DNA from: Chlamydiota bacterium
GTDB taxonomy: Bacteria > Chlamydiota > Chlamydiia > Chlamydiales > JAAKFR01
Assembly: GCA_021772465.1 (NCBI GenBank)
Contig: JAJFLX010000003.1
Coordinates: 279,551 to 343,550, forward strand
DNA length: 64,000 nt
Direction of reading: 5' to 3'
The position numbers and the translations under genes were made by a program. Under the pieces are notes generated by a model, which was not told where the DNA came from, did no database searches, and worked only from the letters and a program-made list of their open reading frames with translations. The stretch's first letter is position 1. Each line of letters starts with the position of its first letter. This document shows, piece after piece, positions 37,998 through 63,970 of the stretch.

Positions 37998-38929
37998 AAA
38001 AATTGCTCCAGGTAAAAAATCTTTCTGTGAAATTTTTCTCTGAGGAGGGAGAGATTGAAGCGGTTCGAGGTGTCGACTTTTTCATTTCAAAAGGTGAGCG
38101 CGTCGCTTTGGTGGGAGAGTCGGGCTGTGGGAAGAGCGCAGCGGCCAAAGCTCTTTTAGGGCTATCCTCAGGGGCCATCCATGCCGATTCTATTGAGTTT
38201 GAGGGAGAGGAGCTCACTGGCCTCTCAAAAAATAAGAGACGCAGTATTCGTGGCAGGCAGATTGGTATGATCTTTCAAGACCCTATGACCTCTCTCAATC
38301 CGACGATGCGTGTGGGGTTGCAAATCATGGAAGCGACTGTGCGCCTCCCTGCGCGAGAGAGAGCCCTTGAACTTCTCAAGCAGGTAGGCATCGACTCCCC
38401 TGAGCGCGTCTTCCGCCAGTACCCCCACGAGCTGAGTGGAGGGATGCGCCAGAGAATCCTGATTGCAATGGCGATCGCAGGTGAGCCGAGTCTTTTGATC
38501 GCAGATGAACCTACTACTGCTCTTGATGTCACCATCCAAGCCGAAATTCTCGAGCTGCTCAAGAGAATTGAAATCACGACTTTGCTAATCACCCACGACC
38601 TTGGAGTGGTCGCGGGTCTGTGTGATCGCGTCTTGGTTATGTATGGAGGGAAGATTGTCGAGATGGGCCTTGTTGAACAAATATTTCATGAGCCGGGACA
38701 CCCTTACACTAGGGCCCTGCTCCGGTCGATCCCAAGAATCGATCTTAGGCGCGATCTTCCCCTCGAGGTGATTGAGGGGTATCCCCCTTCTCTCCTCTCC
38801 CCCCCAGCTGGGTGTCCCTTTGCAGCGCGTTGCTCGGAGGCCATGCAGATTTGCGCTCTAAAAGAGCCACCCCTCACCTCTTTCCACTCCACGCAGGAGG
38901 TGACCTGTTGGCTGAGCGAGAAACCGTAG
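37994..38929 (+). CDS. oppD: oligopeptide ABC transporter ATPase OppD
   Basis: Walker A GESGCGKS, signature LSGGMRQRILIAMA, Walker B LLIADEPTTALD, and a C-terminal oligopeptide-type Cys motif (GCPFAARC). Confidence 0.92.
   Translation: MKKLLQVKNLSVKFFSEEGEIEAVRGVDFFISKGERVALVGESGCGKSAAAKALLGLSSGAIHADSIEFEGEELTGLSKNKRRSIRGRQIGMIFQDPMTSLNPTMRVGLQIMEATVRLPARERALELLKQVGIDSPERVFRQYPHELSGGMRQRILIAMAIAGEPSLLIADEPTTALDVTIQAEILELLKRIEITTLLITHDLGVVAGLCDRVLVMYGGKIVEMGLVEQIFHEPGHPYTRALLRSIPRIDLRRDLPLEVIEGYPPSLLSPPAGCPFAARCSEAMQICALKEPPLTSFHSTQEVTCWLSEKP
38895..38900 (+). promoter_or_regulatory. Shine-Dalgarno AGGAGG for oppF
   Basis: AGGAGG lies 7 nt upstream of the in-frame TTG at 38908, inside the 3' end of oppD. 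Confidence 0.6.
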
Positions 38930-39828
38930 TCGAGATCAGAAATGTGAATAAAGATTATGGAGGGGTCGCTGCTCTCAAAGCGATCTCCCTAAACATCTAT
39001 CGAGGGGAGACGCTCGGTCTTGTAGGAGAGAGTGGGTCGGGCAAATCGACGCTAGCGAAGACTCTGATTCAGCTGGTGAGGCCAAGCTCAGGAAGCCTCT
39101 ACTTTCAAGGCAGCGAGATAGGCTCTTTAGAAAAAAAGCCTCTCAAGCAGCTACGCCGCAAGATGCAGATAATTTTTCAAGACCCCTACGCCTCTCTCAA
39201 TCCCCGGATGACTGTCCGTGAAATACTTAAAGAGCCCTTAGAGATCCACCAATTGGAAGGCTCTGCCGAGCAGCTTCTAGCGCAGGTGGGGATGAATGCG
39301 AGTCATTTAAACCGCTTCCCTCATGAATTTAGTGGGGGGCAAAGGCAGCGCATCGCAATTGCTCGCGCGCTTGCGGTTGATCCCGAATTTCTCATCTGTG
39401 ATGAACCTTTTTCAGCCCTAGATGTCTCCATCCAAGCGCAGATTGTCAATCTCCTCCAAAAGGTCCAAAAGAAGCGGAAGCTCACCTATTTGATCATCGC
39501 CCACGACTTAGCGATGATTCGCTACCTCTGTGACCGAGTCGCGGTGATGTATCGAGGGGCCTTAATGGAGCTAGCGCCCAGTGAGGAGCTATATCGAAAT
39601 CCTATGCATCCCTACACTAAGGCCTTGCTTTCAGCAGTCCCTATCCCCGACCCCCACCTCGAGAAGAAGCGTTCGAAGGTTATTTTAGAAAAGAGGCTCC
39701 CTTTGAGCTCTGAGGGGTGCCCTTTTGCGCACCGATGTCCCCTAGCTACTACAATCTGCCATACACACCGTCCGGAGATGGAGCTCCAACACCAGCGCCA
39801 CGTGGCGTGTCACCATCTTCGCGCATAG
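38908..39828 (+). CDS. oppF: oligopeptide ABC transporter ATPase OppF
   Basis: Walker A GESGSGKST, signature FSGGQRQRIAIARAL, Walker B FLICDEPFSALD, C-terminal GCPFAHRCP...HVACH. The ORF track begins at 38812, 118 nt inside oppD. TTG 38908 with a perfect Shine-Dalgarno gives a normal-length N-terminus (LAERETVVEIRNV...). Confidence 0.9.
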   Translation: MAERETVVEIRNVNKDYGGVAALKAISLNIYRGETLGLVGESGSGKSTLAKTLIQLVRPSSGSLYFQGSEIGSLEKKPLKQLRRKMQIIFQDPYASLNPRMTVREILKEPLEIHQLEGSAEQLLAQVGMNASHLNRFPHEFSGGQRQRIAIARALAVDPEFLICDEPFSALDVSIQAQIVNLLQKVQKKRKLTYLIIAHDLAMIRYLCDRVAVMYRGALMELAPSEELYRNPMHPYTKALLSAVPIPDPHLEKKRSKVILEKRLPLSSEGCPFAHRCPLATTICHTHRPEMELQHQRHVACHHLRA

Positions 39829-42800
39829 GTCCTTTTCCCTTGTCCCTACGAGCTTCTCCCCGCTTCTCTTTTGCCGAGGTGCGTAGATCAGTAAGGAAGT
39901 CATGAGACTCAGGGCGTATTTCGTTCAATAGCTTTTTGTATTGAGCAGACCCTAAGCCCTTGAGCCATTCGGCGAGCTTCTTTTTTTCAGCAGCAGAGAA
40001 TTTAAGGGGATTTTGCTTGCAATGCTTATGAAGAAGCTCAAGTTTTTTTCTCGCGAGCTTGAGTAGTAGTTTTGGATCCCCGTCATTAATACGCCCGAGG
40101 AGAGCTGCCGATTGCTTCGTTTTGAACCCTGTATCTAAGTCCTGGTAGAATCGCTCATAGGTGCCTTCTCTTTTCCATTTTGGCACGAGCGTATTCCACA
40201 GATAGTCTTCTTCAACTGTAGAAAACCGAGGCATATCAATTAAAAGCTTGACGAGGATCGATTTCTCAATAAACCCTTCACTTTTGGAATCAGGGGTCGC
40301 ATTGCCCCGATCTACACAAAGGATTTCATGTTCGTTAGTAAGAGAATAAAGACCCAATTGGTAATTAGTATTTGAACCATCTTTCCCCCGTTCAGTCGCT
40401 AAGAATGAACGTAGACTCTCTGAGTATTCATCTGGGGTGACTATTAACACAGTAGGAGGATTTTCTGGGCTTTTGGCTACGAGGATCCTGAAAGCGGGCA
40501 CACCCGTGACACTTCGACGCAGCTCGTGTGCACGCTCTGAAATATAGAGATCTGTGAGGATCTTGCGTGACGTGGGGCCTATGATATCAGATACACATTG
40601 ATAATGATCGCTAACCATAGATCTATAACGGTATCTTTCTCTTTCAAATCTTCCCATCGTTACGCTCTCAGCAATAAATGCTCTGTAGTCGACAAGACCG
40701 GTCTCTCGAAAATACGAAGTGGGTTGGATTGACGATTCAACTTCCTGCTCTTGCTCCTGTTCCTGCTCTTGCTCTTGCTGTAGCTGCACTTGTTGCTCAG
40801 AGTGAGCTCCTTCATTTTGATGCAGAGGGATTTTCTCAGCGAGATGATTTTTGAAAAAATCCCGATGCGCTTCTTCTGCAAGTTTTGCTTTCTCTGCTTC
40901 AACCACTTTTTTTGCCGCCGTGAGTGCGCTTAGTAGCCCAGCATATTTAGTTTTAATTAAGGGGTAGTTTCCAACTGCTTTCTGCGCCAAATTTTTAATC
41001 AACCCCCAAAAGCCACTGCCTGTATTTGCGTCTTGGGGAGGATTGTAACGACTGTTGAACTCTGCCATATTCTTTTCAAGCTGAGCTGTAAGCTTGACAA
41101 TCATCTCAAGTTGTTTGTTATACTGCGCCTCAAGAAACGCAAGTGTGTCGACATAGGTGGGAGGCGCATAATCTTGGAGCCATTGAATCTCATTTGAAAT
41201 GATGTGAAGATCTCGAATAGCCGGGAAGAGAACTTTCCCCTCAAATTCCACATAAGGCGCTATATCATTTTTATCGTTTGGAAGGGGCACGTATACTCTC
41301 GTGATTCTGTCTAGCTCTAAATCGAGAGGCGTTCGGATTTGCTTGAGCATTGCCTTGGTGTGGTAGAGCTGCTCGGCATCTAAAGTGTTTATGATACAGT
41401 ATTTTAGAGCATGCACAATGAGGAGGTCTTTTGTGGGCTCTAGTTTTAAGCACCGTCTGATTTGGCTCTCGGTTTTCTTATCGAAAGCAATTTTTACTTT
41501 TTGGCCGAGGCCCAGCTGGCGCATCCGGCCGAGCATCTGAGCTACATCATCAATTTTGTTACCGACACCAAAGAGTGCACACCCCTCGATCTCTTCTCCT
41601 ACAGGGACGTGAAAATGCACGCCACGAGTATCTGAAGGGCCGTAGAGAAATAGAGCCCCTTTCTCAATCGCGGAAGCTTCGTAATCCATAACTTCCCCGC
41701 CCCGGCTCATCATTTTCTTCTCGTGGTGGCGCGTACGGTAGATGATCTGCCGCTCCACGCCATTCGCTTGAAGGTAAGCAGCGAGCCTTTCGCAGTCATT
41801 GCCAAGCACCTCATAGTCGTAGTTCATAAGCGCTTGAGTTCCACTTCTAGCTTTTTCAAGCATAAAAGCAAGAGGGTCTGTGAAGCTTGTTTCACACTTA
41901 TCTTCGACATCCATCAAAAGAAGAAGTTCTCCGAGCACATCGTCAGGACGCTTTTCACCAGGTCTTGCGAGATTGAGCGAGAAGAGGTCTCCCGTACCTG
42001 AAGCAATGCGCGCATCTCCCCCTTTTGCAAAACGAGGTCCGATCACGCAGTCTTGAGTGTTGAAGACAATCTGCTCGGCGTAAACTTTGATGTAGTTTGT
42101 ATAGAGCATTAGATGTCTCAAATACACGAGTCGATGCAAACTAAGGCCTTCATCTCCAATAAATGCTTCGTATAGGGTCTCGTACTTTCCAGAAGTAGGT
42201 TTGTCAGGGAAACGCCGGTTGCTTTTGAAACAATCCATGATTTCAGCTTTCCATTCACTCCAAGTCATTTCGGATAGCTGAGGAGAGCAGTGCTCATCGC
42301 CTGGAAGATCGTCATAATTTTTGGCAAATAGCTCCTGATTGAGAGCATTCGATGCTCCTAAATAGTGGAGGATGTGGTGAAAAATGTTTTCAGGCTCATT
42401 CCCATAAAGGACATTCTTTTTTTCGATTCCATCCATATAAGGAACAACTGTGACCCCATCGCGCCTGCAAATACCACGATCGAGTTTAGGATTGATCCCC
42501 GCAACTGAGGGAAGGGCAAGAGTTAAAGAGATTCGCAAAGCAATCAAATAGTGGAACTTCTGCAGCTCCACTTCACCAGCTCCGTTTGGATAGGGAGGAA
42601 GACCCTTTGGAAGGCTCGTTCGGTGTCCTGTCAAATATTCGACAAGCTCCGCTTTATTAATCTGTTCCCACTCATCTTTTTTCCAACCCACAACTGTCCA
42701 CCAGAAATCATCTTCAACTAATGTCTTTGCTACTGTTTGAAGCTCTTGCTCTAGATTTTCAACTGAGCGGAGGTCATTGCCCACCATTTTTTCATAGAGG

Positions 42801-45800
42801 GCTTTATGTTTCTCGCAGATATGACGTACCATTTTTTCCGCCATCGTAAAGCGAGTGGAGTCGACTGTTCGGTGCTCTCCCGTTGCAAAGTTGTATTCAA
42901 AATTGATGTCAAAATTGGTGTCTTCATCAATTAGATAGGAAACGTTCTCTGTTTTGAAAAAACTTTCAATCTTACGAAGCATTTGCAGCTGCACATAATA
43001 TACCTTCAAACGCCCTTGAGCAGACGGGTCGAGCTGGTTAAAATGGCGACCCTCAAGCTCGCAGCAAAGGATGTCTTGTAGTTCAATGCGTTTATTTCTA
43101 AGGCCTGCCAAGTCCTTTGGAGCTGTAAGCACAGCTCGCTTCTCAGACTTTAGTTTATTGAGAGTTCGGAGAATACGCTCAAGATGCTCTTCAATTTCCT
43201 TATTTGTTGGGTCCTCCTTTTTCAATCCGAAGTTGATGTCAAAACCGAAGAGATAGCTCCGTTTTCCAAGCGATTCGTGCAACTGCGTGACGAGCTCTTC
43301 ATTGGTGACCATAACGGGCTGTTTCCCTCGTTGGAGAAGAAGCTCTACTGCTTTTGGAAAAATAAAGTCAGACTTACCAGCCCCCATAATGAGACGAACA
43401 AATCTGTCGGGCTCTTTCGTCTCATCCTTAAGGTCCGCTAGCATCCTCTCAAGGGCGTCATTGGCAAAATCTCTTGAAATCCACCCTCTTCGAACCTCCG
43501 TTACGAGATACCGTCTGGTAAAGAGTTGGTTTTTTAAGCATTGGTTCTTCTCGTCTGCGTATCTCTTCCAGTTGCCCCCTTCAGAGAGGTAGCGTTGAAG
43601 CTCAAATGAGGCCAAGTCCCAATCGCGTGATTTTCCTGACTTTAGAAATTCTTCGATCCGATCAGCCTTCCCTTTACCAGAGCCTTTCGTCTCCTTATGC
43701 ACCTCGTGCATAATCCGCTGGAGCTTCCAACACTGCGCCTTAGCCTTTTCATACTGTTGAAGCTGAGTGGTGCAGAGGATAAAATTTGTTATCATAGCGG
43801 CATACGGTTGCTCGCTTCTATTGTCTTCAAGACCTAGAATGGACCAATCTTGGTAGAGATCAAAGACAGCGTTGAGGATTTGATCCTCGCCCACTCTTTC
43901 CCCATCAGCAAAAAGATCGAGAAGCCCCAGCTCCTTGGCGTGGTATTGTGTAGCCTCTAGCAGCTCAACTTTCATGCGATGCTGCTCCTTTTTGAGAGCC
44001 TCGATCCGCGTCGCAAGATCTTGATAGAGTGTTCTAAGCTTAGAAGAATCTAGCGTCGATTCCGTTTTTTTAACAAGCTTATCTTTTGCCAGCTCAATTC
44101 CACTGCAAATCTCCTGGAATCGAGCAGCTTTGCGAGGATTGGTCACTATAGTCGAGTCAAAATAGTTTTTAGCTTGCTCTTCGCGCACCGTCCATTTACC
44201 AGTCTGTTGATTGATAAAATATGTATTTATGTTTAAGATATCTCGCTTTTCAAGATGAATTTCTGGGTAAGGAACGTCATTTTTTCTTTGCAATGGGACT
44301 TCGGAAGGAAGAGGTACGGCACATCTCTCTTCAGCAGGGCCTGCACGCTCTTGTGCAGGTTCAGGGGTCAGCATTTGTTTTAAGAGGCCTTGTAAATTTC
44401 CAAACCACTCTTCAATCCCTTCAACTGCTGGATTTGTCCCTTCAGTAGCCGCATCGAGCGTGTCTGGGAGTATCTCATTTAAAAAATCTTGAAGATAGGG
44501 AATGAGTAGGGAGTCGCTCTGAGCAAGAAAGTCGGTCATTAGGCCCCGAGGCACTCGCCTACCCCCGATTTCGTCGTATGAAGTGTAGTGGGAGATGTAA
44601 AGCTTATACACTGCGTAGAGTTTGTAAAATCCCTGTTTGTTGATCCCCAGTATTGAGGGGTTGCGAAGTTGCTCATCCCAAAGTTTTTTCTGCTTTGTAT
44701 GGAGCTCTCCAAAGGGAGGGAGCCGATTTCCAGAAATTTTGACATTTTTCACAAGAAGCGCAATATCTCGTACCCGAGTTTGCCACTTTGGCCCTTGCTC
44801 CTCTTTAAACTTATGGATGAGCAAGAGCAAATGCCTTGCCGTATCCACTAAAGACTCTGTACCCTCCGGAAGAGGTCTTCGAAGGAAGGCTAGATCTTCA
44901 GAAGAGAGCTCTTCTTCAATAATCCACTCCCAATAAGACCAAAAATTTCCTACAACAGTTTCGATTTTCGGATAGTGTCCGAATCGCTGGTGATGCTCCT
45001 TTACAGGCGCTGGGTAGTAGCGTTTTGGAAGAGCCAAAATCAGTTCGTGCAGCTGGTCTTTTGAAAACTTACTTTGAAGCTCAAAAGGTTTTGGAGGCGT
45101 TTTAAGTTTCTGAAGTTTTTCTCGGATCTGAGAGATCACATTCTGACCTCCCGTCAAATTGAACGAAGTATAGAGGCCGAGGAGCGAGGAGATCCGCTGA
45201 TTTTCTGGAATTCGAATAGAGATACGAGTCATCTCATCATCTGTCAGAATTAAACTATGTTCATGCAATTGATTGCGAAAGTGACCTCGTTGCTTTTGAT
45301 GTTGAGAGAACAGAGTTGAAAATACGAAAATGAGAATAGATTTCTCCTTTTCATTATAAGGTAGTTCGCCATGTTGGCTTTCAAAATGGTGTTCCAATGA
45401 AAAAATTGAAACGAGGAACTTCGTCCAATAAGCAGTTTCTAACGGAGTGAGAGAAGTGGGGTCGGAAATAAAATTAAGAGCTTTTGCTAAGAATTGTTGA
45501 ATTCCAATGCCTCGGATCATCTCTTTTAGCTCTTTAAAATCGATTGCTTCAGAGTGCCCTTTCTCAACAAATTGAGTGAGGTATCGGTTTGCTGCCCCCC
45601 ACTCTTGGCGAGTCGCTGCAAGGTAGCTGAGATAGAGAAATCCTCGGTGTGTCGACTGCTCTCCAGAGGCATCAATGTCAACTAAAGTGGGTGTCGGTTT
45701 CGCGATGTGGTTGATCAGAGTGCCAAAAAATTGGACGTTTTCATCCGATCCTTCCATCAACTTCGTTGCAATTTCCTCTGTTCCAACGAATATTTTACCA

Positions 45801-48800
45801 ATAGCCGCTAACTGTTTTATAAGTGCTATCGATTTCGTCATCCCAGCGAGCATGTTATTATCAACTGACTCCAGTAATGGCAAGATGGAAGAGAAGTCGT
45901 GCAGAGCATCTCCTCCCAAATCGAGCAGATCCTGGATAGTTTTGATGTAGTGAAGAGGTTTTCCCTTCTGAGCCACATTTGTTGCAAAGTAGGGAAAAAC
46001 CCATAAACGGAGAGCACCCGTTTCGCTATTTCGAAGCGCAAGGGTATTTTCGCGCCAGTTGGCTCCAAACTGCGCTTCGATTTGCTTTGTACCTGAAAGC
46101 GCGAGTTTCCAGTTTGCATTCCCCGCTACATGCCACCCCTCATCGGTCGTATGTTTCAAGATAAGTCGTTTCTTAGAACTAGGATCTTCAGGAAATCTCA
46201 CTTCATCAACATGGGTTCCATCAGACGAGAGCATTAAAAGCTCTTGGTTGGAACAGCATTGAAAGAGATGAACCCCTTTTTTCTTCATCTGGGCGCAAAC
46301 GGTTTTCTGCTCGCTCCCCACACCTAGAGTCGCCTTTCGGATAGATTTTGAATTCAAATGAAGCTCAATAGGGTCGTTTTCTAGGTCCCGACCTCTCCTA
46401 GCTACAAGAGCGCGGCTAGAATCTAGTTTTCCCTTGGAATCAATAGGGACCCATATTCCTTTCTCTGTTATCTGCTGTTCGACAAAGGTATTTCGATGAG
46501 TCGAGAAAAGAGGGGTGAGCAAAATATCTGCTTTCCGCCTTTTCAGAGTTACGACTTGAAAGCGGTACTCCGCATCTCCACGCTTTTGGATCACATCGAG
46601 TTTATTACCTGAGGTTCTAAAAGTTATGGAAACGCCACAGGGGTCAGTCCATAAGTATTCAACGACGTTGTTATCGCGCACCTGTTCTTTAACCCACATC
46701 CTGGCCGGCTTTCCAAAAAGGAAGGTGAAATTAGGATCACTTTTAAAGCGTTCAGGAAATTCCTTGAGGCCGCCTGATTCTATTTGTGTGGTGCACCCCA
46801 TGCCGCTGACTAAATCCAAAACGATTTCGTCTGGGCCTTGAAGGGTGTAGCAGTACGGGTTATGAGGCTGCTCTTTCCATTTTCCCTCAGAGCCACTCAA
46901 GCGCTTGAGAAGCTCATTGCGAAATTCTTCATCAGTTTCTAGTTCCCCGCGAAGCCTGGGGAGTAAATCTCGCTTTGTAAATGCGATATTTTCCTCTTGC
47001 AGCCCTGAATGGCCTATTGGGAAGGGTGATTTCTGAAGGATGTAAAGAGCAGAGATGATCGCTCTCCATTCAGCCAAATTCGCTCCATCCTTAGGAGGGT
47101 ATCGGTTGAAATGGCTTAAGAGATGGGTGGCAAAAATTTTCTGATCGCGCTTCTCTTCATTGTCTCTAAAGTCAGATAAGAAGTCGCTTGCGTTGTACTT
47201 ATAAAGAGCATCCGAAATAGCGGGTGCACAAACATAGATCAGAAGCCGAGAGAGATCGCCCGATCTGGTTAGTCGATAAGATAAAGCAAGCACATTGTCT
47301 TCATCTGAAATTTTTTGAGCTAGTTCGTGAGCAAATTCCTTGTAAAGAGTCGTCGTCTCTCCCCTTTCCATTTCTCTTCTAAGAGGCGAATCTTCTTCAA
47401 GTTTTTCACGAATCCACTTCTCGATCACATCCCTTGAAGCGGGGCAGATCTTCAAAATGGAGGTAGTCACTTCACCGATGATAGTCGAGCGGAGCTGATT
47501 TGCCATGCTGCGGATCCTCTCAGAGATATCCATCAAAAAGAGAAGAGTAGCTCTCTCTTGACGCCTTGTCAGACGATCAATAATCTCTTCGAGCGCAGCT
47601 TTGTTATCGATGAAGAGGTGGGGGTGTGTGAGAAGTTGCTTGCGCAAAAGACCCGGCGAGAAAAATCTCTGGTAGAAAGTATCCCTCACGTGCTCAATTT
47701 TCAAGGCCGTAGGGCATTCATAGAGGTATTCCCAAAGACTTGAGATAGATGTCACATCGAGTTCTGGAACGAACTCAAATATTTTGTCCCCCCCCTCTCT
47801 ATTTGCAACGGACGTTTGTCGCAAACAATACTCCTCTGCCGGGCTTAGCGCAGGGAACTCTGGTTTTTCTCCTACTCTCGTCGCAAACTGCCTCTCCTCG
47901 TCATTTTTAAGAGCATCTTTTGCAATCACTAAAGGCATGTTCCCGATGTCATAGGGCCTGTGATCGATTGTGGGAGGAGTGCCTATTTTCTGTGTGTAGA
48001 TTCGAAAGGGTCCCAACTCATTTTTCTTATCCGTCAGAGTGTAACAACAGTGCGATTCCCTGTTATCCAAGCACCATGGGGTCAAATAGAGGCGATCTAG
48101 CTCTCCGAAACGCTTTTGAAGTTCTTTGAGTTTTGGAGGGTCATTATTCACTAGAACAAATTGCGCAACTTTTCCCTTCCTATCCCATCCAGCGAAACGG
48201 TGCATCATGCCCGTTGGATCTTCAAGAGCATCACGCATCGCAAGCTGGCGACGCAATAAGCCGATCTCTTTCGGCCCCAGGTACTCATAGGCATCTTTAA
48301 GGTTGAAAACACCACGTTGATGAAAGAGGACATTGTTAGCCAGCCTAGTGCTAGGTGTAGCCTCGTTTAATGCACTCAATTTTACCCGCTCAGGGAATGT
48401 GGGTTCTGGGAATTGAGTTCCGTCGCCAAGTTGATCGTATCCGATTAAGAAAGAGTGTTTATTTTCTGAAATAAAATGATTAAAAGCTACGCCGCGAGAC
48501 AGGTGTTCTCTGAACTCATTGTAAGCGACAATACAGCTTTGATATCTTGCCTGAGATTGAGGGTCATTGCCATAAGGTAGGCTGCGATCGCCCGAGAGGA
48601 GCCAATGATTTTGTTTGCAGGTATAAGTCCAAATAAAGGTATTGAGAATTTTGGGGTCTATGTAACTTATTTCACTTTTAGGAATCTCTAAGATTTTGAA
48701 AAATCTGCCTACCATGGCGACAAAGCGACGATTACTTCTACTTCTCCCACCTAAATCTGACTGATAATTAATAGTTCCTAAAAAATTATCAGGATTAAAA

Positions 48801-51385
48801 TTAACTGCTCGAATCTTTTTCAATAGATTATCTTGCTGCTGGCTTGTCACAATCTCCTGGTCGAGCACCTTTTGCTTCTCCTCCGGAGGGGGGCTTTGCT
48901 CTGGAACTTCGGGTCTAGGACCTTGAGCTCTTTCAGGTAAGAGTCTCCATACCATTAAGGCTCTAGTTGCTTTGTTATGATCTGAATCTTGCTTTGCCCA
49001 TTCACGATTCAATCTTTGGGTCGTCTGCTTAGCAACCTCATCTTTACGCAATTCAATGAAAGCCTCTCTTTTCGCCTGAAGCTTTTGAACTATTTCAGCA
49101 TTGTTTAAGTTTGCCTTCAAACGCTCATTAAATCGACGTTGCATCAAGGGCACTTTTTGCTGGAAGAGGCGGAGCTGGATGAGGGGAAGGACCGAATGGA
49201 ACTCAAGTATTTCATGGGGAGAAAGGGGGAAGCTGCCAGAATGAAGAGCTGCTTCAAAAAAACGCTCTCCAAGATCGCCCAATGCGCTACCCCATTTTTC
49301 AATTGCCTCGACATCAACTACACTCTCCCAAAAATCGTCGGTTGGAGGAGGCACAGCCTTCAAAAGGCTCGCTAGAAACATTTTTGCTGCTAGAGGATCC
49401 TTCTGCTCAACAATATACGTTTCAGCTACCTCAAGAAGCTCAGAGAGAGCTTCAAGCCTAAAGTCCGAGCTCAAGGCATCGATCTTTTCTTGATGCTGAG
49501 GGAGAACGCGGGACATGGGGGCATCATTCAAAGTCAACTGAGAGGCGAGAGCGCTTGCCTCAATAGAGTTGGTGAGTTCAGCTTTGAATCGGTTCGCGGA
49601 ACTCGACAGCCTCGCTAGATCTGCAGCCTCCTTCTTCTCACGGAGTTTATGTACGTCAAACTTTTGTTGTAATTGAGCTGAAAATAAGTCAAGAATCACC
49701 TTCGCGGCATCGATACCGAGCTCGTTTTTTAGTTCTTGATGCAGGTCCTGCGCGCTATCTTGAATCCGCTCTAAGACGCGTATCTGCTCGCTATTTGAAA
49801 GCTGAGACTCATAGCGATCATATGTTTCAACCAGATGATTGAGGTAGACTTGATAGAACCGATACCGCGCATACGCTCGATCTTCCACTTGATTTTCAGA
49901 AGTAATAAAGGCGCCATTCTCGACTCCTAGTTGCTTAATAACGCCGTAGAGGGTGGTGACTGGATCGCGAGTAGGCTCTCGCTTGACGATAGGATTACCG
50001 ACTTTTTCAGCCTCCCAACTACGAAAAAGAGCTTCAAGAGAGTGATCTTTTTGGCGTTGAGGACGATCTTGAGCCTCTTTTATGTCTTTAGGACGAGAGA
50101 AGGATTGGATTGCGAGAAGTTCTCGAATTCTCTTAGGCCCAAATTCTTTTAACTTAACAGTTGAGCAGGTATCAATCAGCCCCGATTCTTTTTCCTTGGT
50201 CGAAAAACAGACATCGGTGATTTCAAACGTCTCTTCATCGGTTTTTTTGATGACTAAAAAATGAGGGAGATACTCTTTCCCTTCACCTATAGCGAAAGGG
50301 AGCAAAACGGGAGCGAAACCCTCTACCGCCTTATTTAACTTAGAGACCGCTGATTTTATCCGCTTGAGATCACCCGACTCAAGAGCTTGCCGTGTGATGT
50401 GCGCTAAGTGACTTCCCTGCGATAAGATGCGTGAGAGTCGCTCTGCTGAATTGCCCGACTCGTACTTGTTTTCATTTGAACGCACATCCTTAGAGCGCAC
50501 TTTTTTCAGTAAAGGATGGCTTCGAGGCAAAATTATTTTGTCACCCAAAACAAATCGGTAGATGTGGTGTTTTGTATCCTTCGATATTTTTCTGGCAAAG
50601 GAAGCTAAAGTGGGGTCGTCCACATCGAGATAGAGCTCTATCTCCTCCTGAATTAAAATATGAACCTCATTTCCTATGATCTTGCAAGGTTGCAAAGAAA
50701 CTGGCTGGTTTTCCTTGTCGCCAGAGGGGGCATTCTTAATGAGCTCAGCTGATTTTGTATACCCTATCAAGCTCGACTCATTAGGGGTAAGGTCTTGAAA
50801 ATATGTTGCCATAAAGTCGATGTGATCCAAAACCATCTGGTGGTTGAATTCACCCACACAACTTGGCTGCAAGGGCGCCATAAGAGAAGCAAACTTCGAC
50901 GCATCCCCACCCTTTGTCATAAGCCGATACAAGGAACTAAAGGGCTTTTTAAGCAACGCGCCAAACGCATATAGAGCGCCCATCACCGACCCTCGGGTCG
51001 ATTTTTCCGCAAAATGGCGAATCGTCAGATCGTGAACTCTTGCTGCAGTCGCGACTGCACCCTTGGCGGGCAGGTCCACCTCTTTTTTTGTGACAGGTTG
51101 TTGCGAGTTCAAATCGTAATAACGATAAGAGACCGCGTTTCTGTCATATTCAGTGATTTCGACAACTAATTTTTGGTTAAGATCTCTCGAGGTTTTAACC
51201 GGATCCTGCGCATCTTTAAATATAGTCTCTAAACAGGTGTTCCGCTCTCTCTCATTCCACTTAAAACTTCTTCGGGCAAAAAAAACGACCCCTTGCGCCC
51301 TCGGCCCTACCGGAATATATTCAAAAGCTTCGCCCGATCCCACTAAATCAGTGAGCTCTTTACCCGATTTATTAACCTTATTCAC
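39749..51385 (-). CDS. giant hypothetical protein (3,878 aa) with an internal P-loop/SF2-like NTPase core (DUF3638/DUF3645-like)
   Basis: Single uninterrupted 11,637-nt ORF; ORFs in the other frames are <=101 aa. Walker A-like RLIMGAGKSDFIFP (MGAGKS = nt 43370-43387, aa 2667-2672). LIDED (nt 42920-42934, aa 2818-2822). Arginine-rich QMLGRMRQLG (nt 41510-41539, aa 3283-3292). QQ(EQ)5E linker at aa 3536-3548. No TM or signal peptide seen. GTG start without Shine-Dalgarno (start uncertain). Confidence 0.8.
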   Translation of the reverse strand: MNKVNKSGKELTDLVGSGEAFEYIPVGPRAQGVVFFARRSFKWNERERNTCLETIFKDAQDPVKTSRDLNQKLVVEITEYDRNAVSYRYYDLNSQQPVTKKEVDLPAKGAVATAARVHDLTIRHFAEKSTRGSVMGALYAFGALLKKPFSSLYRLMTKGGDASKFASLMAPLQPSCVGEFNHQMVLDHIDFMATYFQDLTPNESSLIGYTKSAELIKNAPSGDKENQPVSLQPCKIIGNEVHILIQEEIELYLDVDDPTLASFARKISKDTKHHIYRFVLGDKIILPRSHPLLKKVRSKDVRSNENKYESGNSAERLSRILSQGSHLAHITRQALESGDLKRIKSAVSKLNKAVEGFAPVLLPFAIGEGKEYLPHFLVIKKTDEETFEITDVCFSTKEKESGLIDTCSTVKLKEFGPKRIRELLAIQSFSRPKDIKEAQDRPQRQKDHSLEALFRSWEAEKVGNPIVKREPTRDPVTTLYGVIKQLGVENGAFITSENQVEDRAYARYRFYQVYLNHLVETYDRYESQLSNSEQIRVLERIQDSAQDLHQELKNELGIDAAKVILDLFSAQLQQKFDVHKLREKKEAADLARLSSSANRFKAELTNSIEASALASQLTLNDAPMSRVLPQHQEKIDALSSDFRLEALSELLEVAETYIVEQKDPLAAKMFLASLLKAVPPPTDDFWESVVDVEAIEKWGSALGDLGERFFEAALHSGSFPLSPHEILEFHSVLPLIQLRLFQQKVPLMQRRFNERLKANLNNAEIVQKLQAKREAFIELRKDEVAKQTTQRLNREWAKQDSDHNKATRALMVWRLLPERAQGPRPEVPEQSPPPEEKQKVLDQEIVTSQQQDNLLKKIRAVNFNPDNFLGTINYQSDLGGRSRSNRRFVAMVGRFFKILEIPKSEISYIDPKILNTFIWTYTCKQNHWLLSGDRSLPYGNDPQSQARYQSCIVAYNEFREHLSRGVAFNHFISENKHSFLIGYDQLGDGTQFPEPTFPERVKLSALNEATPSTRLANNVLFHQRGVFNLKDAYEYLGPKEIGLLRRQLAMRDALEDPTGMMHRFAGWDRKGKVAQFVLVNNDPPKLKELQKRFGELDRLYLTPWCLDNRESHCCYTLTDKKNELGPFRIYTQKIGTPPTIDHRPYDIGNMPLVIAKDALKNDEERQFATRVGEKPEFPALSPAEEYCLRQTSVANREGGDKIFEFVPELDVTSISSLWEYLYECPTALKIEHVRDTFYQRFFSPGLLRKQLLTHPHLFIDNKAALEEIIDRLTRRQERATLLFLMDISERIRSMANQLRSTIIGEVTTSILKICPASRDVIEKWIREKLEEDSPLRREMERGETTTLYKEFAHELAQKISDEDNVLALSYRLTRSGDLSRLLIYVCAPAISDALYKYNASDFLSDFRDNEEKRDQKIFATHLLSHFNRYPPKDGANLAEWRAIISALYILQKSPFPIGHSGLQEENIAFTKRDLLPRLRGELETDEEFRNELLKRLSGSEGKWKEQPHNPYCYTLQGPDEIVLDLVSGMGCTTQIESGGLKEFPERFKSDPNFTFLFGKPARMWVKEQVRDNNVVEYLWTDPCGVSITFRTSGNKLDVIQKRGDAEYRFQVVTLKRRKADILLTPLFSTHRNTFVEQQITEKGIWVPIDSKGKLDSSRALVARRGRDLENDPIELHLNSKSIRKATLGVGSEQKTVCAQMKKKGVHLFQCCSNQELLMLSSDGTHVDEVRFPEDPSSKKRLILKHTTDEGWHVAGNANWKLALSGTKQIEAQFGANWRENTLALRNSETGALRLWVFPYFATNVAQKGKPLHYIKTIQDLLDLGGDALHDFSSILPLLESVDNNMLAGMTKSIALIKQLAAIGKIFVGTEEIATKLMEGSDENVQFFGTLINHIAKPTPTLVDIDASGEQSTHRGFLYLSYLAATRQEWGAANRYLTQFVEKGHSEAIDFKELKEMIRGIGIQQFLAKALNFISDPTSLTPLETAYWTKFLVSIFSLEHHFESQHGELPYNEKEKSILIFVFSTLFSQHQKQRGHFRNQLHEHSLILTDDEMTRISIRIPENQRISSLLGLYTSFNLTGGQNVISQIREKLQKLKTPPKPFELQSKFSKDQLHELILALPKRYYPAPVKEHHQRFGHYPKIETVVGNFWSYWEWIIEEELSSEDLAFLRRPLPEGTESLVDTARHLLLLIHKFKEEQGPKWQTRVRDIALLVKNVKISGNRLPPFGELHTKQKKLWDEQLRNPSILGINKQGFYKLYAVYKLYISHYTSYDEIGGRRVPRGLMTDFLAQSDSLLIPYLQDFLNEILPDTLDAATEGTNPAVEGIEEWFGNLQGLLKQMLTPEPAQERAGPAEERCAVPLPSEVPLQRKNDVPYPEIHLEKRDILNINTYFINQQTGKWTVREEQAKNYFDSTIVTNPRKAARFQEICSGIELAKDKLVKKTESTLDSSKLRTLYQDLATRIEALKKEQHRMKVELLEATQYHAKELGLLDLFADGERVGEDQILNAVFDLYQDWSILGLEDNRSEQPYAAMITNFILCTTQLQQYEKAKAQCWKLQRIMHEVHKETKGSGKGKADRIEEFLKSGKSRDWDLASFELQRYLSEGGNWKRYADEKNQCLKNQLFTRRYLVTEVRRGWISRDFANDALERMLADLKDETKEPDRFVRLIMGAGKSDFIFPKAVELLLQRGKQPVMVTNEELVTQLHESLGKRSYLFGFDINFGLKKEDPTNKEIEEHLERILRTLNKLKSEKRAVLTAPKDLAGLRNKRIELQDILCCELEGRHFNQLDPSAQGRLKVYYVQLQMLRKIESFFKTENVSYLIDEDTNFDINFEYNFATGEHRTVDSTRFTMAEKMVRHICEKHKALYEKMVGNDLRSVENLEQELQTVAKTLVEDDFWWTVVGWKKDEWEQINKAELVEYLTGHRTSLPKGLPPYPNGAGEVELQKFHYLIALRISLTLALPSVAGINPKLDRGICRRDGVTVVPYMDGIEKKNVLYGNEPENIFHHILHYLGASNALNQELFAKNYDDLPGDEHCSPQLSEMTWSEWKAEIMDCFKSNRRFPDKPTSGKYETLYEAFIGDEGLSLHRLVYLRHLMLYTNYIKVYAEQIVFNTQDCVIGPRFAKGGDARIASGTGDLFSLNLARPGEKRPDDVLGELLLLMDVEDKCETSFTDPLAFMLEKARSGTQALMNYDYEVLGNDCERLAAYLQANGVERQIIYRTRHHEKKMMSRGGEVMDYEASAIEKGALFLYGPSDTRGVHFHVPVGEEIEGCALFGVGNKIDDVAQMLGRMRQLGLGQKVKIAFDKKTESQIRRCLKLEPTKDLLIVHALKYCIINTLDAEQLYHTKAMLKQIRTPLDLELDRITRVYVPLPNDKNDIAPYVEFEGKVLFPAIRDLHIISNEIQWLQDYAPPTYVDTLAFLEAQYNKQLEMIVKLTAQLEKNMAEFNSRYNPPQDANTGSGFWGLIKNLAQKAVGNYPLIKTKYAGLLSALTAAKKVVEAEKAKLAEEAHRDFFKNHLAEKIPLHQNEGAHSEQQVQLQQEQEQEQEQEQEVESSIQPTSYFRETGLVDYRAFIAESVTMGRFERERYRYRSMVSDHYQCVSDIIGPTSRKILTDLYISERAHELRRSVTGVPAFRILVAKSPENPPTVLIVTPDEYSESLRSFLATERGKDGSNTNYQLGLYSLTNEHEILCVDRGNATPDSKSEGFIEKSILVKLLIDMPRFSTVEEDYLWNTLVPKWKREGTYERFYQDLDTGFKTKQSAALLGRINDGDPKLLLKLARKKLELLHKHCKQNPLKFSAAEKKKLAEWLKGLGSAQYKKLLNEIRPESHDFLTDLRTSAKEKRGEARRDKGKGPMREDGDTPRGAGVGAPSPDGVYGRL

Positions 51386-51474
51386 GTAATGCCTATAGAT
51401 AATGAAATTTCAAATATAATAACCTAAAAAGATTAAGATTACATAAATTTTTAACGGGAAGAGAGGCTGATTTG

Positions 51475-56654: not shown

Positions 56655-57330
56655 ACGAGTAGCGGGATTAGATCTTTTGGTATCGCCGGGCGATCCCGGA
56701 GGGATGCACATCGTTTTGTTGCACGGGTATGGAGCTAGTGCCTCGGATCTCGCCTCATTGAGTGAAAGGTTTGAGTTGACGCCTCGACCCACTTTTGTCT
56801 TTCCCGAGGGTCCCCTTGAAATTGAATTTGCTCCGGGATTTACAGGAAGAGCTTGGTTTCCTATCGATCTAGGGGCCATTGAAGAGGCCTTTCGAGCCAA
56901 AAGGTATGACCTTGTATCAAAGGCTTTTCCCTCTCATATTGAACAGGTTCGTACCCAAGTGCACCATCTGGTTCAAGAGCTCGACATCGCCCCTGGCAAG
57001 GTCGTGCTTGGAGGGTTTAGTCAAGGGGCAATTTTGAGCGTAGAGTGCGCCCTGCATGCACCTGTAAGCTACGGTGCCCTTTTGATCTTCTCTGGCAGCA
57101 TGATTCACGAGGTGAGCTGGAAGCGATTGGCTCCACTTCATCTCTCAACCCATTTTTTTCAAAGCCATGGAAAAAACGATACGATCCTCCCCTATTCTCT
57201 GGCCCAATCACTTGAAAAGGTGCTAGTAGAGGCTGGATTAAAAGGAAGACTCCATAGTTTTGAGGGGGGACATGAAATCCCAGAAAAAATCCTCAAAAGT
57301 GCTGAGGAATTTCTGTGTCGTTTAGTCTGA
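56644..57330 (+). CDS. alpha/beta-hydrolase carboxylesterase/phospholipase family protein
   Basis: HIVLLHGYGASASDL and nucleophile elbow GFSQGA; HGKNDTILP, GGHEI. The ORF track starts at 56566, inside the SOD gene. TTG 56644 or ATG 56704 are likelier starts. Confidence 0.8.
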   Translation: MESRRVAGLDLLVSPGDPGGMHIVLLHGYGASASDLASLSERFELTPRPTFVFPEGPLEIEFAPGFTGRAWFPIDLGAIEEAFRAKRYDLVSKAFPSHIEQVRTQVHHLVQELDIAPGKVVLGGFSQGAILSVECALHAPVSYGALLIFSGSMIHEVSWKRLAPLHLSTHFFQSHGKNDTILPYSLAQSLEKVLVEAGLKGRLHSFEGGHEIPEKILKSAEEFLCRLV

Positions 57331-58009
57331 GAAGAAGGATATCAAGGCAGTTTTTAGGTGAGATGGCGCGTTCTAGGCCTAAACGCGCCTCTACCAATAG
57401 TTTTTCGACATAAGAGAGGGGCAATTTTGTTGTCTTTCTTATCGCTTCCCGATGCTGGGGAAAGCTCAAGTAGATCTCTCCTCCCTCCACATCCAGAAGA
57501 AGGCGGTCTCGATACCAAAGAAGGATCGACTCCAAGATAGCATCTGGGGCCTCTTCTAGGGCTATCTCACCGCGCAAGATATCTAAAACATCAAAAGCTG
57601 ACTCTCTTTTTTTGGAGGGTAGATCGATCCTTTGACATCTCGACGTCACAGTAGGAAGTAATTGCTTAGGGTGAGTGGTCAAAAGCACGAGAATCGTCTG
57701 GGCTGGGGGTTCTTCGAATGTTTTGAGAAGCGCATTCGAACTAGTCGGCAACATCCGTTCAGCGCGGTGAATGAGAAAAAGCTTCCACTTTCCCTCAAAA
57801 GGGTCGAGCCACACCTCTTGAGAGAGCTTTCTAAGATTTTCAATGGGGTGGCGGTCTGATTTTCCTTCCGGGAAATATTCGTGTAAATCGGGATGGCACG
57901 GCCTTCCAAGAAGGCGAAGAGCTAAATGACTTCCTGCCTCTATTAAGGAGGACTCATCATCTGCTACAAAAACCATAGCGTGAGGAAGCTGATCTAGATC
58001 GGGAAACAT
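57293..58009 (-). CDS. holB: DNA polymerase III delta' subunit (compact form)
   Basis: SSNALLKTFEEPP and LPTVTSRCQ (SRC motif). Only 238 aa. Start overlaps the tmk stop (TAATG). Confidence 0.8.
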   Translation of the reverse strand: MFPDLDQLPHAMVFVADDESSLIEAGSHLALRLLGRPCHPDLHEYFPEGKSDRHPIENLRKLSQEVWLDPFEGKWKLFLIHRAERMLPTSSNALLKTFEEPPAQTILVLLTTHPKQLLPTVTSRCQRIDLPSKKRESAFDVLDILRGEIALEEAPDAILESILLWYRDRLLLDVEGGEIYLSFPQHREAIRKTTKLPLSYVEKLLVEARLGLERAISPKNCLDILLLRLNDTEIPQHF

Positions 58010-58668
58010 TATAGTCGAGAGGGTTTGAGTGTAAGGTGGCGCTCAAGCGCGGTGACAGATTGGGCAAAGACCTCGTCTGGCAAAAGAGAAGCATCGATTA
58101 CAACAATACGCTCAGGGTGCTCATCTGCTAAGTGGAGATACCCTTGTCGTACCTCCTGGTGAAACTGCAAGCCCTCCTCTTCCATTCGGTCTGGGGCGCC
58201 AAGCGAGCGTTGACTTCCAACAGATGGATCGATGTCGAGGAAAAATGTGCAGTCAGGTTCACTGAGCCCCTCAGTTGCAAGCTGGCACAACTTTTCTACA
58301 TAATTCTTTCCAAGGTGACGAGCGACTCCTTGGTAGGCGACACTTGAGTCATTGAAGCGATCACAAAGGACTACTTTTCCCGCGTGAAGTGCTGGAAGGA
58401 TGGACTCCTCTACATGTTGAGCACGCGCTGCGAGAAAGAGCAAGAGCTCAGCGCGCTCTCGAATGAGAAAAGGGGTCTTTTTATCGAGGACCATTTCACG
58501 AATCTTTTCAGAAAGAGCTGTTCCACCCGGCTCTCGGGTTTTGATGACATCATACCCCCGAGAAGTGAGCTCAACTGCCAGCCGCTCACAAAGGGTGGAT
58601 TTTCCCGAGCCCTCTCCCCCTTCAAATGTGATGAAAAGCCCCTTATACGGTTTGTTCATCTGTTGCAT
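58009..58668 (-). CDS. tmk: thymidylate kinase
   Basis: FITFEGGEGSGKST P-loop, and the TREPGGT and DRF motifs. Confidence 0.93.
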   Translation of the reverse strand: MQQMNKPYKGLFITFEGGEGSGKSTLCERLAVELTSRGYDVIKTREPGGTALSEKIREMVLDKKTPFLIRERAELLLFLAARAQHVEESILPALHAGKVVLCDRFNDSSVAYQGVARHLGKNYVEKLCQLATEGLSEPDCTFFLDIDPSVGSQRSLGAPDRMEEEGLQFHQEVRQGYLHLADEHPERIVVIDASLLPDEVFAQSVTALERHLTLKPSRL

Positions 58669-61123: not shown

Positions 61124-61133
61124 GTAGTCTGTC

Positions 61134-63970
<2,837 letters not shown>

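Follow-up and report, generated by a model that had tools for sequence, protein, structure and literature searches.

We analyzed a window of 64,000 nucleotides from a Chlamydiota bacterium (contig JAJFLX010000003.1, positions 279,551 to 343,550 of the forward strand), 18% of which is occupied by a single giant gene on the minus strand. An earlier reading of the DNA, made without database searches (the sequence-only reading), had described this gene as one uninterrupted open reading frame (ORF) with a GTG start, no Shine-Dalgarno sequence, and an AT-rich gap of 89 bp separating it from the upstream cyclophilin gene. The gene and the gap are as follows.

39749..51385, minus strand: whole giant gene, encoding 3,878 amino acids (aa), 444 kDa, pI 6.7, with a GTG start; defined from the ORF list and full-length homologues
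51386..51474, minus strand: intergenic spacer of 89 bp, 74% A+T, reaching from the cyclophilin gene to the GTG start

This description holds in all its parts. The translation of 39749-51385 contains no internal stops, all 3,878 codons being open, and the chance probability of such a frame at the local base composition is ~1e-97. The frameshifts or stops that would have marked the gene as decayed or misassembled were not found in the frame. The ORFs in competing frames are at most 101 aa across the gene, as had been stated, with the sole exception of the 3' tail of the convergent oppF gene (38812-39828, plus strand), which shares its last 80 nt (39749-39828) with the 3' end of the giant gene. 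The last ~26 codons of both genes are read from this common DNA, and no terminator was found between them. The corresponding C-terminal tail of the giant protein is rich in glycine, arginine and proline and is poorly conserved in the family described below.

An in-frame TGA at 51412-51410 lies 25 nt upstream of the gene, so the GTG at 51385 is the first possible start. This start is also supported because the N-terminus of the protein (MNK-VNKSGKELTDLV-GSGEAFEYIP) aligns with those of orthologues such as P0010 (MSK-EIKISKPITLET-KHSEVYEFSP). There is no clear Shine-Dalgarno sequence upstream of the GTG, and neither a sigma-70-like promoter nor a terminator was found in the 89-bp spacer. The surrounding genes are those first described (oppBCDF and genes for cyclophilin, DUF1186, OsmC and a Na/sulfate-type symporter), together with genes for pirin and a redoxin. 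Scans of the window for Rfam families and tRNAs gave no hits. Third-position GC content sets the giant, cyclophilin, DUF1186 and OsmC genes (0.44-0.47) apart from oppBCDF and the symporter gene (0.52-0.57), and the former four may have been relocated or acquired together as a block.

The product was proposed to be a huge soluble protein, and this is what we find. No signal peptide and no transmembrane segment were identified; the highest Kyte-Doolittle mean over 19 residues is only 1.68, at aa 2946-2964, and this most hydrophobic stretch is a helix in the structural model of the ATPase module, with a predicted local distance difference test (pLDDT) value above 90. The composition, which had been called E/K/L/Q-rich, is not striking (L 11.4, E 8.6, K 7.4 and Q 4.7%), and self-BLAST shows no internal repeats. 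The gene is genuine and intact, and its product is a cytosolic protein of 444 kDa.

The giant gene is a member of a large family of proteins of 3,000-6,000 aa that share a collinear architecture of five blocks. The family came to light only when a profile built from the common ATPase core (alignment A1) was run exhaustively against 1.84 billion cluster representatives. It matched 250 of them at E<=1e-3, including 96 at E<=1e-30. The 250 are nearly all 3,000-6,000 aa in length, and the matched module lies about two-thirds along each protein. Of the 150 listed representatives, more than 100 are intact ORFs of this size, and about 30 representatives align collinearly with almost the entire query, at 23-32% identity by BLAST. 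P0010, for example, aligns with aa 1-3443 of the query at 30% identity. A word-indexed homologue search found only two relatives (5,681 and 4,883 aa, collinear in several blocks), and a word-indexed search with a profile found only one. A metagenome scan with the giant protein yielded no close relatives, and a scan with alignment A5 yielded three loci, of which one was new.

When 25 sequences are aligned with MAFFT, the conserved blocks fall at aa 1-200, 300-1300, 1390-2330, 2400-3450 and 3500-3800, with variable linkers between them. Among the 150 listed representatives out of 250, on which these counts rest, profiles of blocks 1 to 5 match 21, 48, 68, 144 and 40 proteins, respectively, always in collinear order. 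These matches include the remote member P0128, which scores above threshold for Pfam DUF3638 (50.6 bits). Because the block profiles match in collinear order, the full giant architecture is conserved, beyond the ATPase alone.

All family members whose genomic context was examined are bacterial. Around the orthologues lie chlamydia-type neighbors, for example genes for an ATP/ADP translocase and for F-box proteins, both characteristic of amoeba-associated chlamydiae. Two distant paralogues with weak DUF3638 matches, P0044 (locus L008, 4,221 aa) and P0131 (locus L017, 3,907 aa), occur in other bacterial contexts, and their neighbors include genes for RING-finger and leucine-rich repeat (LRR) proteins and for an eukaryote-like protein kinase of 805 aa. 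This suggests that several paralogous clades of giants exist in intracellular bacteria.

The part of the protein with recognizable catalytic motifs is an ATPase module, for which we obtained an AlphaFold2 model from a 27-sequence alignment (mean pLDDT 87.8, predicted template modelling score 0.83). The module and its motifs are located as follows, with invariance given for the 25-sequence alignment.

41036..44188, minus strand: ATPase module, aa 2400-3450 (AlphaFold2 model m5dfeca4ec084, Foldseek and Pfam DUF3638)
43370..43384, minus strand: Walker A / motif I, GAGKS, aa 2668-2672; G2668, G2670 and K2671 invariant in 25/25
42917..42928, minus strand: Walker B / motif II, DEDT, aa 2820-2823; D2820 and E2821 invariant in 25/25
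42356..42478, minus strand: conserved motif in the insertion, aa 2970-3010, with R2970, G2971, P2982, D2985, E2999, H3003 and Y3008
41990..42001, minus strand: motif III-like SGTG, aa 3129-3132, after the insertion; S3129, T3131 and G3132 invariant
41510..41632, minus strand: motif V-like DTRGV, aa 3252-3256, and motif VI-like Q3283..GRMRQLG, the latter stretch at aa 3286-3292

The modelled order is a helical lead-in, a RecA-like lobe 1 (~2655-2840 plus 3100-3135), a 260-aa insertion, a RecA-like lobe 2 (~3140-3315) and a scaffold of three long helices (aa 3320-3446). The insertion (aa 2843-3099) contains both helices and beta strands and is placed between the Walker B and SGTG strands. Across the family the invariant patterns are M-G-x-G-K-[ST] (2667-2672), D-E-D (2820-2822), S-G-T-G (3129-3132), D-[TS]-R-G (3252-3255) and Q..G-R-x-R..G (3283-3294), and a motif Ia-like element (PV..TT..L..Q) follows the P-loop. 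Both R3287 and R3289 are invariant and are candidate arginine fingers. With two RecA-like lobes and motifs I, II and VI all present, the motor is predicted to be of the superfamily 2 (SF2) type with intact conserved catalytic motifs. The insertion carries a family-invariant pattern of its own (R-G...VVPY.DG.EK....YG.E.E..H...Y), modelled as a beta-hairpin plus a helix. This motif, which the SF2 motor model leaves unexplained, may form a second site for catalysis or ligand binding.

The enzyme-like region that the sequence-only reading had placed near aa 2650-3300 is wider (~aa 2650-3450). It had also raised the possibility of a new class of giant nucleoside triphosphatase (NTPase) machine. The NTPase is the only recognizable catalytic unit of the protein, but a new class is not supported, as the unit is a divergent DUF3638-type motor of a kind known to Pfam and present in giant viruses.

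The relationship to DUF3638 is visible in both sequence and structure. The Pfam match to DUF3638 (PF12340) falls on lobe 1 (aa 2653-2861), with 22.6 bits for the whole protein (E 7.6e-5) and 26.3 bits for the excised module (E 5.4e-6), against a gathering threshold of 31. Two family members linked to the giant protein by profile exceed this threshold, P0128 with the score given above and P0090 with 31.7 bits. DUF3645 (PF12359) has no match at E<=1 in the giant protein and the other two members of A1, nor at E<=0.01 in three remote representatives. The viral structures that we searched were the predicted structures in BFVD, where long proteins are split into segments. There the module shares its fold with seven giant-virus proteins annotated as DUF3638 or 'ubiquitinyl hydrolase 1' (Foldseek E 3e-19 to 4e-15, probability 1.00), with template modelling scores (TMq) of 0.40-0.53 over 850-1140 aligned columns and only 10-14% sequence identity. 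These proteins come from Harvfovirus, Fadolivirus, Hokovirus and Hyperionvirus, with weaker matches from Megaviridae and Yasminevirus, and two of them are automatically annotated as 'ubiquitinyl hydrolase 1'. Ordinary SNF2/DEAD helicases appear among the viral structures only above E 1e-3.

Giant DUF3638 proteins are known from eukaryotes and from Klosneuvirinae/Mimiviridae, whereas the host of the present protein is bacterial. Given the fold shared with seven viral proteins and a P-loop and acidic Walker B found in 25/25 sequences, the motor is predicted to be of the DUF3638 type that is also present in amoeba giant viruses. The giant protein is a divergent bacterial variant of the DUF3638 kind, with family-specific extra blocks. 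The mechanism of DUF3638 is described as undefined in a 2025 paper (PMC12615304), and DUF3638 is listed only as a domain within a large microsporidian gene family in another (PMC5423893). We found no functional study of DUF3638, DUF3645, DUF6606 or the chlamydial giant genes in the literature.

Among experimentally derived structures in the PDB, the three best fold matches to the module are SecA (3iqm, 6sxh and 4ys0), at E 5.5e-4 to 9.5e-4 and probability 1.00. SecA is a two-lobe DEAD-like motor in which Walker B is followed by a large insertion (PPXD), placed between DEVD and GMTGTA, while the second lobe is followed by a helical scaffold domain; the order of elements in the modelled module fits this layout. 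However, the alignments of ~1,000 columns reach TM-scores of only 0.30-0.37, profile searches of PDB sequences did not find SecA, and hhalign of A5 against E. coli SecA gave a probability of 0.2%. The E. coli SecA query sequence matched 6s0k at 1844 bits. The giant protein is also five times larger than SecA and nothing ties it to the Sec channel. We therefore reject membership in the SecA family, there being no detectable similarity by sequence or profile, and the likeness is topological at most.

Below SecA, the PDB fold matches are weak (E 6e-3 to 0.4) and include MDA5, DinG/CasDinG, ALC1, SWR1, Chd1 and RecQ. The module has in common with SF2 helicases of the MDA5/RIG-I-like, DinG/XPD and SNF2 groups a core of RecA1 and RecA2 and motifs I, Ia-like, II, V and VI. 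These helicases differ in that their insertions lie elsewhere, and the giant protein has neither a recognizable nucleic-acid-binding accessory domain nor a sequence-level match to them.

The other blocks of the protein are conserved in the family and match no named domain.

50786..51385, minus strand: N-terminal domain, aa 1-200, found in the closer orthologues (A2 profile 21/150), with a variable linker (aa 200-300) after it
47486..50488, minus strand: block 2, aa 300-1300 (alignment A3, profile 48/150, collinear), family-conserved, with no known domain
44396..47218, minus strand: block 3, aa 1390-2330 (AlphaFold2 model mbb981d86baa5; A4 profile 68/150)
45941..46879, minus strand: beta-rich domain, aa 1503-1815, well predicted and more conserved than any other part except the ATPase
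40742..40780, minus strand: QQ(EQ)5E low-complexity linker, aa 3536-3548
39986..40738, minus strand: C-terminal domain, aa 3550-3800 (A6 profile 40/150), weakly conserved, with no known domain

The block 2 profile has no sequence match in the PDB. Block 3 was modelled from a 20-sequence alignment (pLDDT 76.4) as a helical segment, a beta-rich domain, a disordered linker and an alpha-helical domain. Residues W1503, Q1600, G1643, W1645, G1688, W1751 and G1774 of the beta-rich domain are invariant or nearly so. A Foldseek search of the PDB with block 3 gave no significant analogue (best E 1e-2, probability 0.16), the best of these insignificant matches being propeller-plus-solenoid proteins of the IFT-A, Elongator and nucleoporin type. 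In the C-terminal domain, S3616, R3618, A3619, T3650 and E3725 are conserved. The low-complexity linker lies where it was first reported. Whole-protein searches of Pfam, NCBIfam and PADLOC gave only the sub-threshold DUF3638 match, and phmmer and four block profiles found nothing significant among PDB sequences. The earlier statement that the bulk of the protein carries no nameable motif is thus supported for the ~2,900 residues outside the ATPase.

Outside the motor, near-invariance is largely confined to G, P, W, L and F. Cysteine columns reach 20 of the 25 sequences at best; the top two are C1697 (18/25) and column 3183 (20/25), where the present protein has a threonine. We rejected a thiol deubiquitinase on the grounds that no cysteine is conserved across the 25-sequence family alignment, which also argues against a thiol protease. 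This pattern of conservation favors a scaffold or binding role, and the N-terminal 2,300 aa are likely a helical and beta-rich scaffold without conserved catalytic residues.

The genomic position of the gene differs between the window and other genomes. In 9/9 orthologues examined, the giant gene lies directly downstream of metN-metI-metQ on the same strand. A divergent deoC gene lies upstream in these loci, often with genes for BrkB, a methyltransferase and a protein of ~1,100 aa further upstream. The window has its own copy of this cluster (deoC 12296-13369, metNIQ 13440-15866), with no giant gene behind metQ. Instead, metQ is directly followed by a ParA-like gene, an ORF of 1,244 aa and genes for glucokinase, M19 dipeptidase and aconitase, which are the genes found 3' of the giant gene in other genomes. 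The giant gene itself is 24 kb from metNIQ, on the opposite strand, between oppF and the cyclophilin gene.

15867..16296, no strand assigned: empty ancestral site at the junction of metQ and the ParA-like gene, where the orthologues carry the giant gene

No remnants of the giant gene were found by tblastn at the metQ-ParA site or elsewhere in the window. A run of ten cytosines (C10) at 15959-15968 lies within this intergenic region and could be a relocation scar or a phase-variable tract. Because 9/9 orthologues follow metNIQ and the site in the window is empty with its downstream genes intact, we conclude that the gene is ancestral to a broad chlamydial group and that it moved 24 kb and was inverted in the window lineage. 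The sequence-only reading had called the gene a lineage-specific insertion. This is correct for its position but not for the gene itself, given the 250 representatives, the conserved location after metNIQ and the empty site here.

Several further observations concern these loci. On the minus strand of the window, 57293-63623 encodes gyrB-gyrA-tmk-holB, followed by seven unrelated genes and then the giant gene. In a locus from a metagenome-assembled genome (L001, 1-6146) the order is gyrB-gyrA-tmk-holB-deoC/metNIQ-giant. The giant gene is similarly distant downstream of holB in both, although the intervening genes differ, and more than the move of a single gene may have been involved in the rearrangement. 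In the 2.4-Mb genome that carries P0006 (locus L004), an integrase/transposase (rve) gene and an NTase-substrate-binding gene at 23070-25528 are directly downstream of the giant gene. Because the rve gene adjoins the giant gene there, mobile DNA is present at the locus in at least one lineage. Two additional large ORFs in the window have no Pfam domain. One (17249-20983, plus strand) is the 1,244-aa ORF, which is 24% identical to part of an ORF of 1,897 aa located after the giant gene in L006. The other (5354-8662, minus strand) encodes 1,102 aa, and five related loci have a counterpart of ~30% identity upstream of BrkB. The two seem to encode further large proteins that evolve fast.

The conserved surroundings allow the rate of change of the giant protein to be compared with that of its neighbors. 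Identities between the window copies and their counterparts in the nine orthologue loci are listed below.

DeoC: 73-83% identity to the window copy
MetI: 59-64% identity to the window copy
MetN: 45-60% identity to the window copy
MetQ: 48-60% identity to the window copy
BrkB: 52-59% identity in five loci, 34% in L002
Giant protein: 23-32% identity to the window copy

The closer syntenic orthologues of the giant protein are mostly 35-50% identical to one another, and the query is ~30% identical to each. The giant family diverges far faster than the neighbor genes. Despite this divergence, the giant reading frame is open throughout the orthologues, which suggests that the product is strongly selected for even as its sequence changes fast.

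Considering these data, the giant gene is probably an ancestral, relocated member of the giant family whose DUF3638-type motor remodels a macromolecule. The protein would hydrolyze ATP, movement of the two lobes would translocate or remodel a macromolecular substrate, and this substrate may be held by the insertion domain together with the huge N-terminal scaffold. Because the family evolves faster than its neighbors and has structural relatives in amoeba giant viruses, we speculate that it acts at the host interface rather than in housekeeping. Several observations weigh against this explanation. The giant protein scores below the PF12340 gathering threshold, and neither it nor the other two A1 members match DUF3645. 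The resemblance to SecA has low TM-scores and a negligible hhalign probability, and two-thirds of the protein either lack a structural analogue or fall outside the models (aa 1-1390 and 3450-3878). Additionally, the position beside a methionine ABC transporter in other genomes argues for vertical inheritance and could fit a housekeeping role, and the leaning towards the host interface, which draws on rate and relatives, is speculative.

A related possibility, which the sequence-only reading had also raised and which overlaps with a remodelling motor of the DUF3638 type and is not exclusive of it, is that the protein is a type III secreted, host-directed effector that is exported unfolded and acts as an ATP-driven remodeller in the amoebal or host cytosol. 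We regard this as possible, though not the likelier outcome. It is consistent with the lack of a Sec signal peptide and of transmembrane segments, with a polar, Ser/Lys-rich N-terminus whose style is conserved among orthologues, and with evolution much faster than that of the syntenic neighbors. By structure, the relatives are found among the DUF3638 proteins of amoeba giant viruses, DUF3638 is a eukaryotic domain in the description of Pfam, and F-box, RING, LRR and eukaryote-like kinase genes occur near related loci. However, no chaperone-like gene is conserved alongside in the loci examined, export of a well-folded, multi-domain ATPase of 444 kDa would be extreme, and the same-strand position after metNIQ in 9/9 orthologues resembles an old place in the core genome rather than an effector island. 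That core-genome-like synteny would suit an intrabacterial helicase or translocase acting on chlamydial DNA or RNA, for instance in nucleoid remodelling during the transition between elementary and reticulate bodies. Such a role also agrees with SF2 motifs I, II, V and VI, a PTxxLxxQ-like motif Ia, and Foldseek matches to MDA5, DinG, ALC1, Chd1, RecQ and viral SNF2/DEAD helicases. We consider it doubtful, as the fold matches are weak (E>6e-3) and rank under SecA, Pfam and NCBIfam recognize no nucleic-acid-binding domain in the 3,878 aa, and orthologue identities of 23-32% are unusually low for a housekeeping enzyme when its neighbors show 50-83%.

A SecA-like polypeptide motor, in which the insertion would clamp a protein substrate while the lobes push or unfold it, is suggested by analogy with the three best PDB matches, the large insertion between Walker B and SGTG, and the long-helix scaffold after lobe 2. 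The low TM-scores, the hhalign result, the failure of PDB profile searches to find SecA and the lack of any link to SecYEG make this improbable. Giant SF2 ATPases do occur in defense systems, and one orthologous locus has a transposase and the NTase-substrate-binding gene beside the giant gene, but we rejected an anti-phage or anti-mobile-element ATPase as very unlikely. PADLOC matched 0 families at E<=1, the conserved position is beside housekeeping genes and not in defense islands, and there are no conserved partner genes. Least credible is a pseudogene, an assembly artefact or a cytotoxin of the LifA/Efa1/TcdB type. The uninterrupted frame, with its vanishing chance probability, and intact collinear homologues in dozens of lineages led us to reject the first two. 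LifA/Efa1 and clostridial-type cytotoxins, including their chlamydial homologues, likewise exceed 3,000 aa, occur in host-associated bacteria and lack a classical signal peptide, but it is size alone that favors this assignment. The giant protein is centered on an ATPase and shows no sequence similarity to these toxins; Pfam at E<=1 finds no glycosyltransferase, C58/C80 protease or other toxin domain, and the toxin reading was rejected for this lack. The homology to LifA/TcdB that the sequence-only reading had named as a counter-indication was likewise sought in NCBIfam at E<=1 and in PDB sequences and was not found.

What is new here is a picture at the level of the family, consisting of its conserved synteny, full-length architecture, motor model, SecA-like layout and link to amoeba giant viruses. 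A lone hypothetical giant thereby becomes a member of a defined family with five mapped blocks and a conserved address after metNIQ. The motor model names K2671, E2821, R3287 and R3289 as catalytic residues and draws attention to a second conserved site with R2970, E2999 and H3003. Although their sequences change rapidly, homologues of 3,000-6,000 aa are kept whole in all lineages examined, and genes of 11-17 kb are rarely kept by reduced intracellular genomes without strong selection.

Tentatively, amoeba-associated chlamydiae, giant viruses of amoebae and eukaryotes may share an uncharacterized class of giant motors of 3,000-6,000 aa that combine an SF2 ATPase of SecA-like topology with a conserved scaffold encoded by several kilobases, the chlamydial version being an ancient, fast-evolving, host-directed and possibly exported remodeller encoded by the largest gene in the genome. 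If this is true, an exported chlamydial giant would remodel host protein or nucleoprotein complexes. The family is now linked to the uncharacterized DUF3638 proteins of giant viruses and eukaryotes. This link points to gene exchange inside amoebae, and a function established in one DUF3638 group would inform the others.

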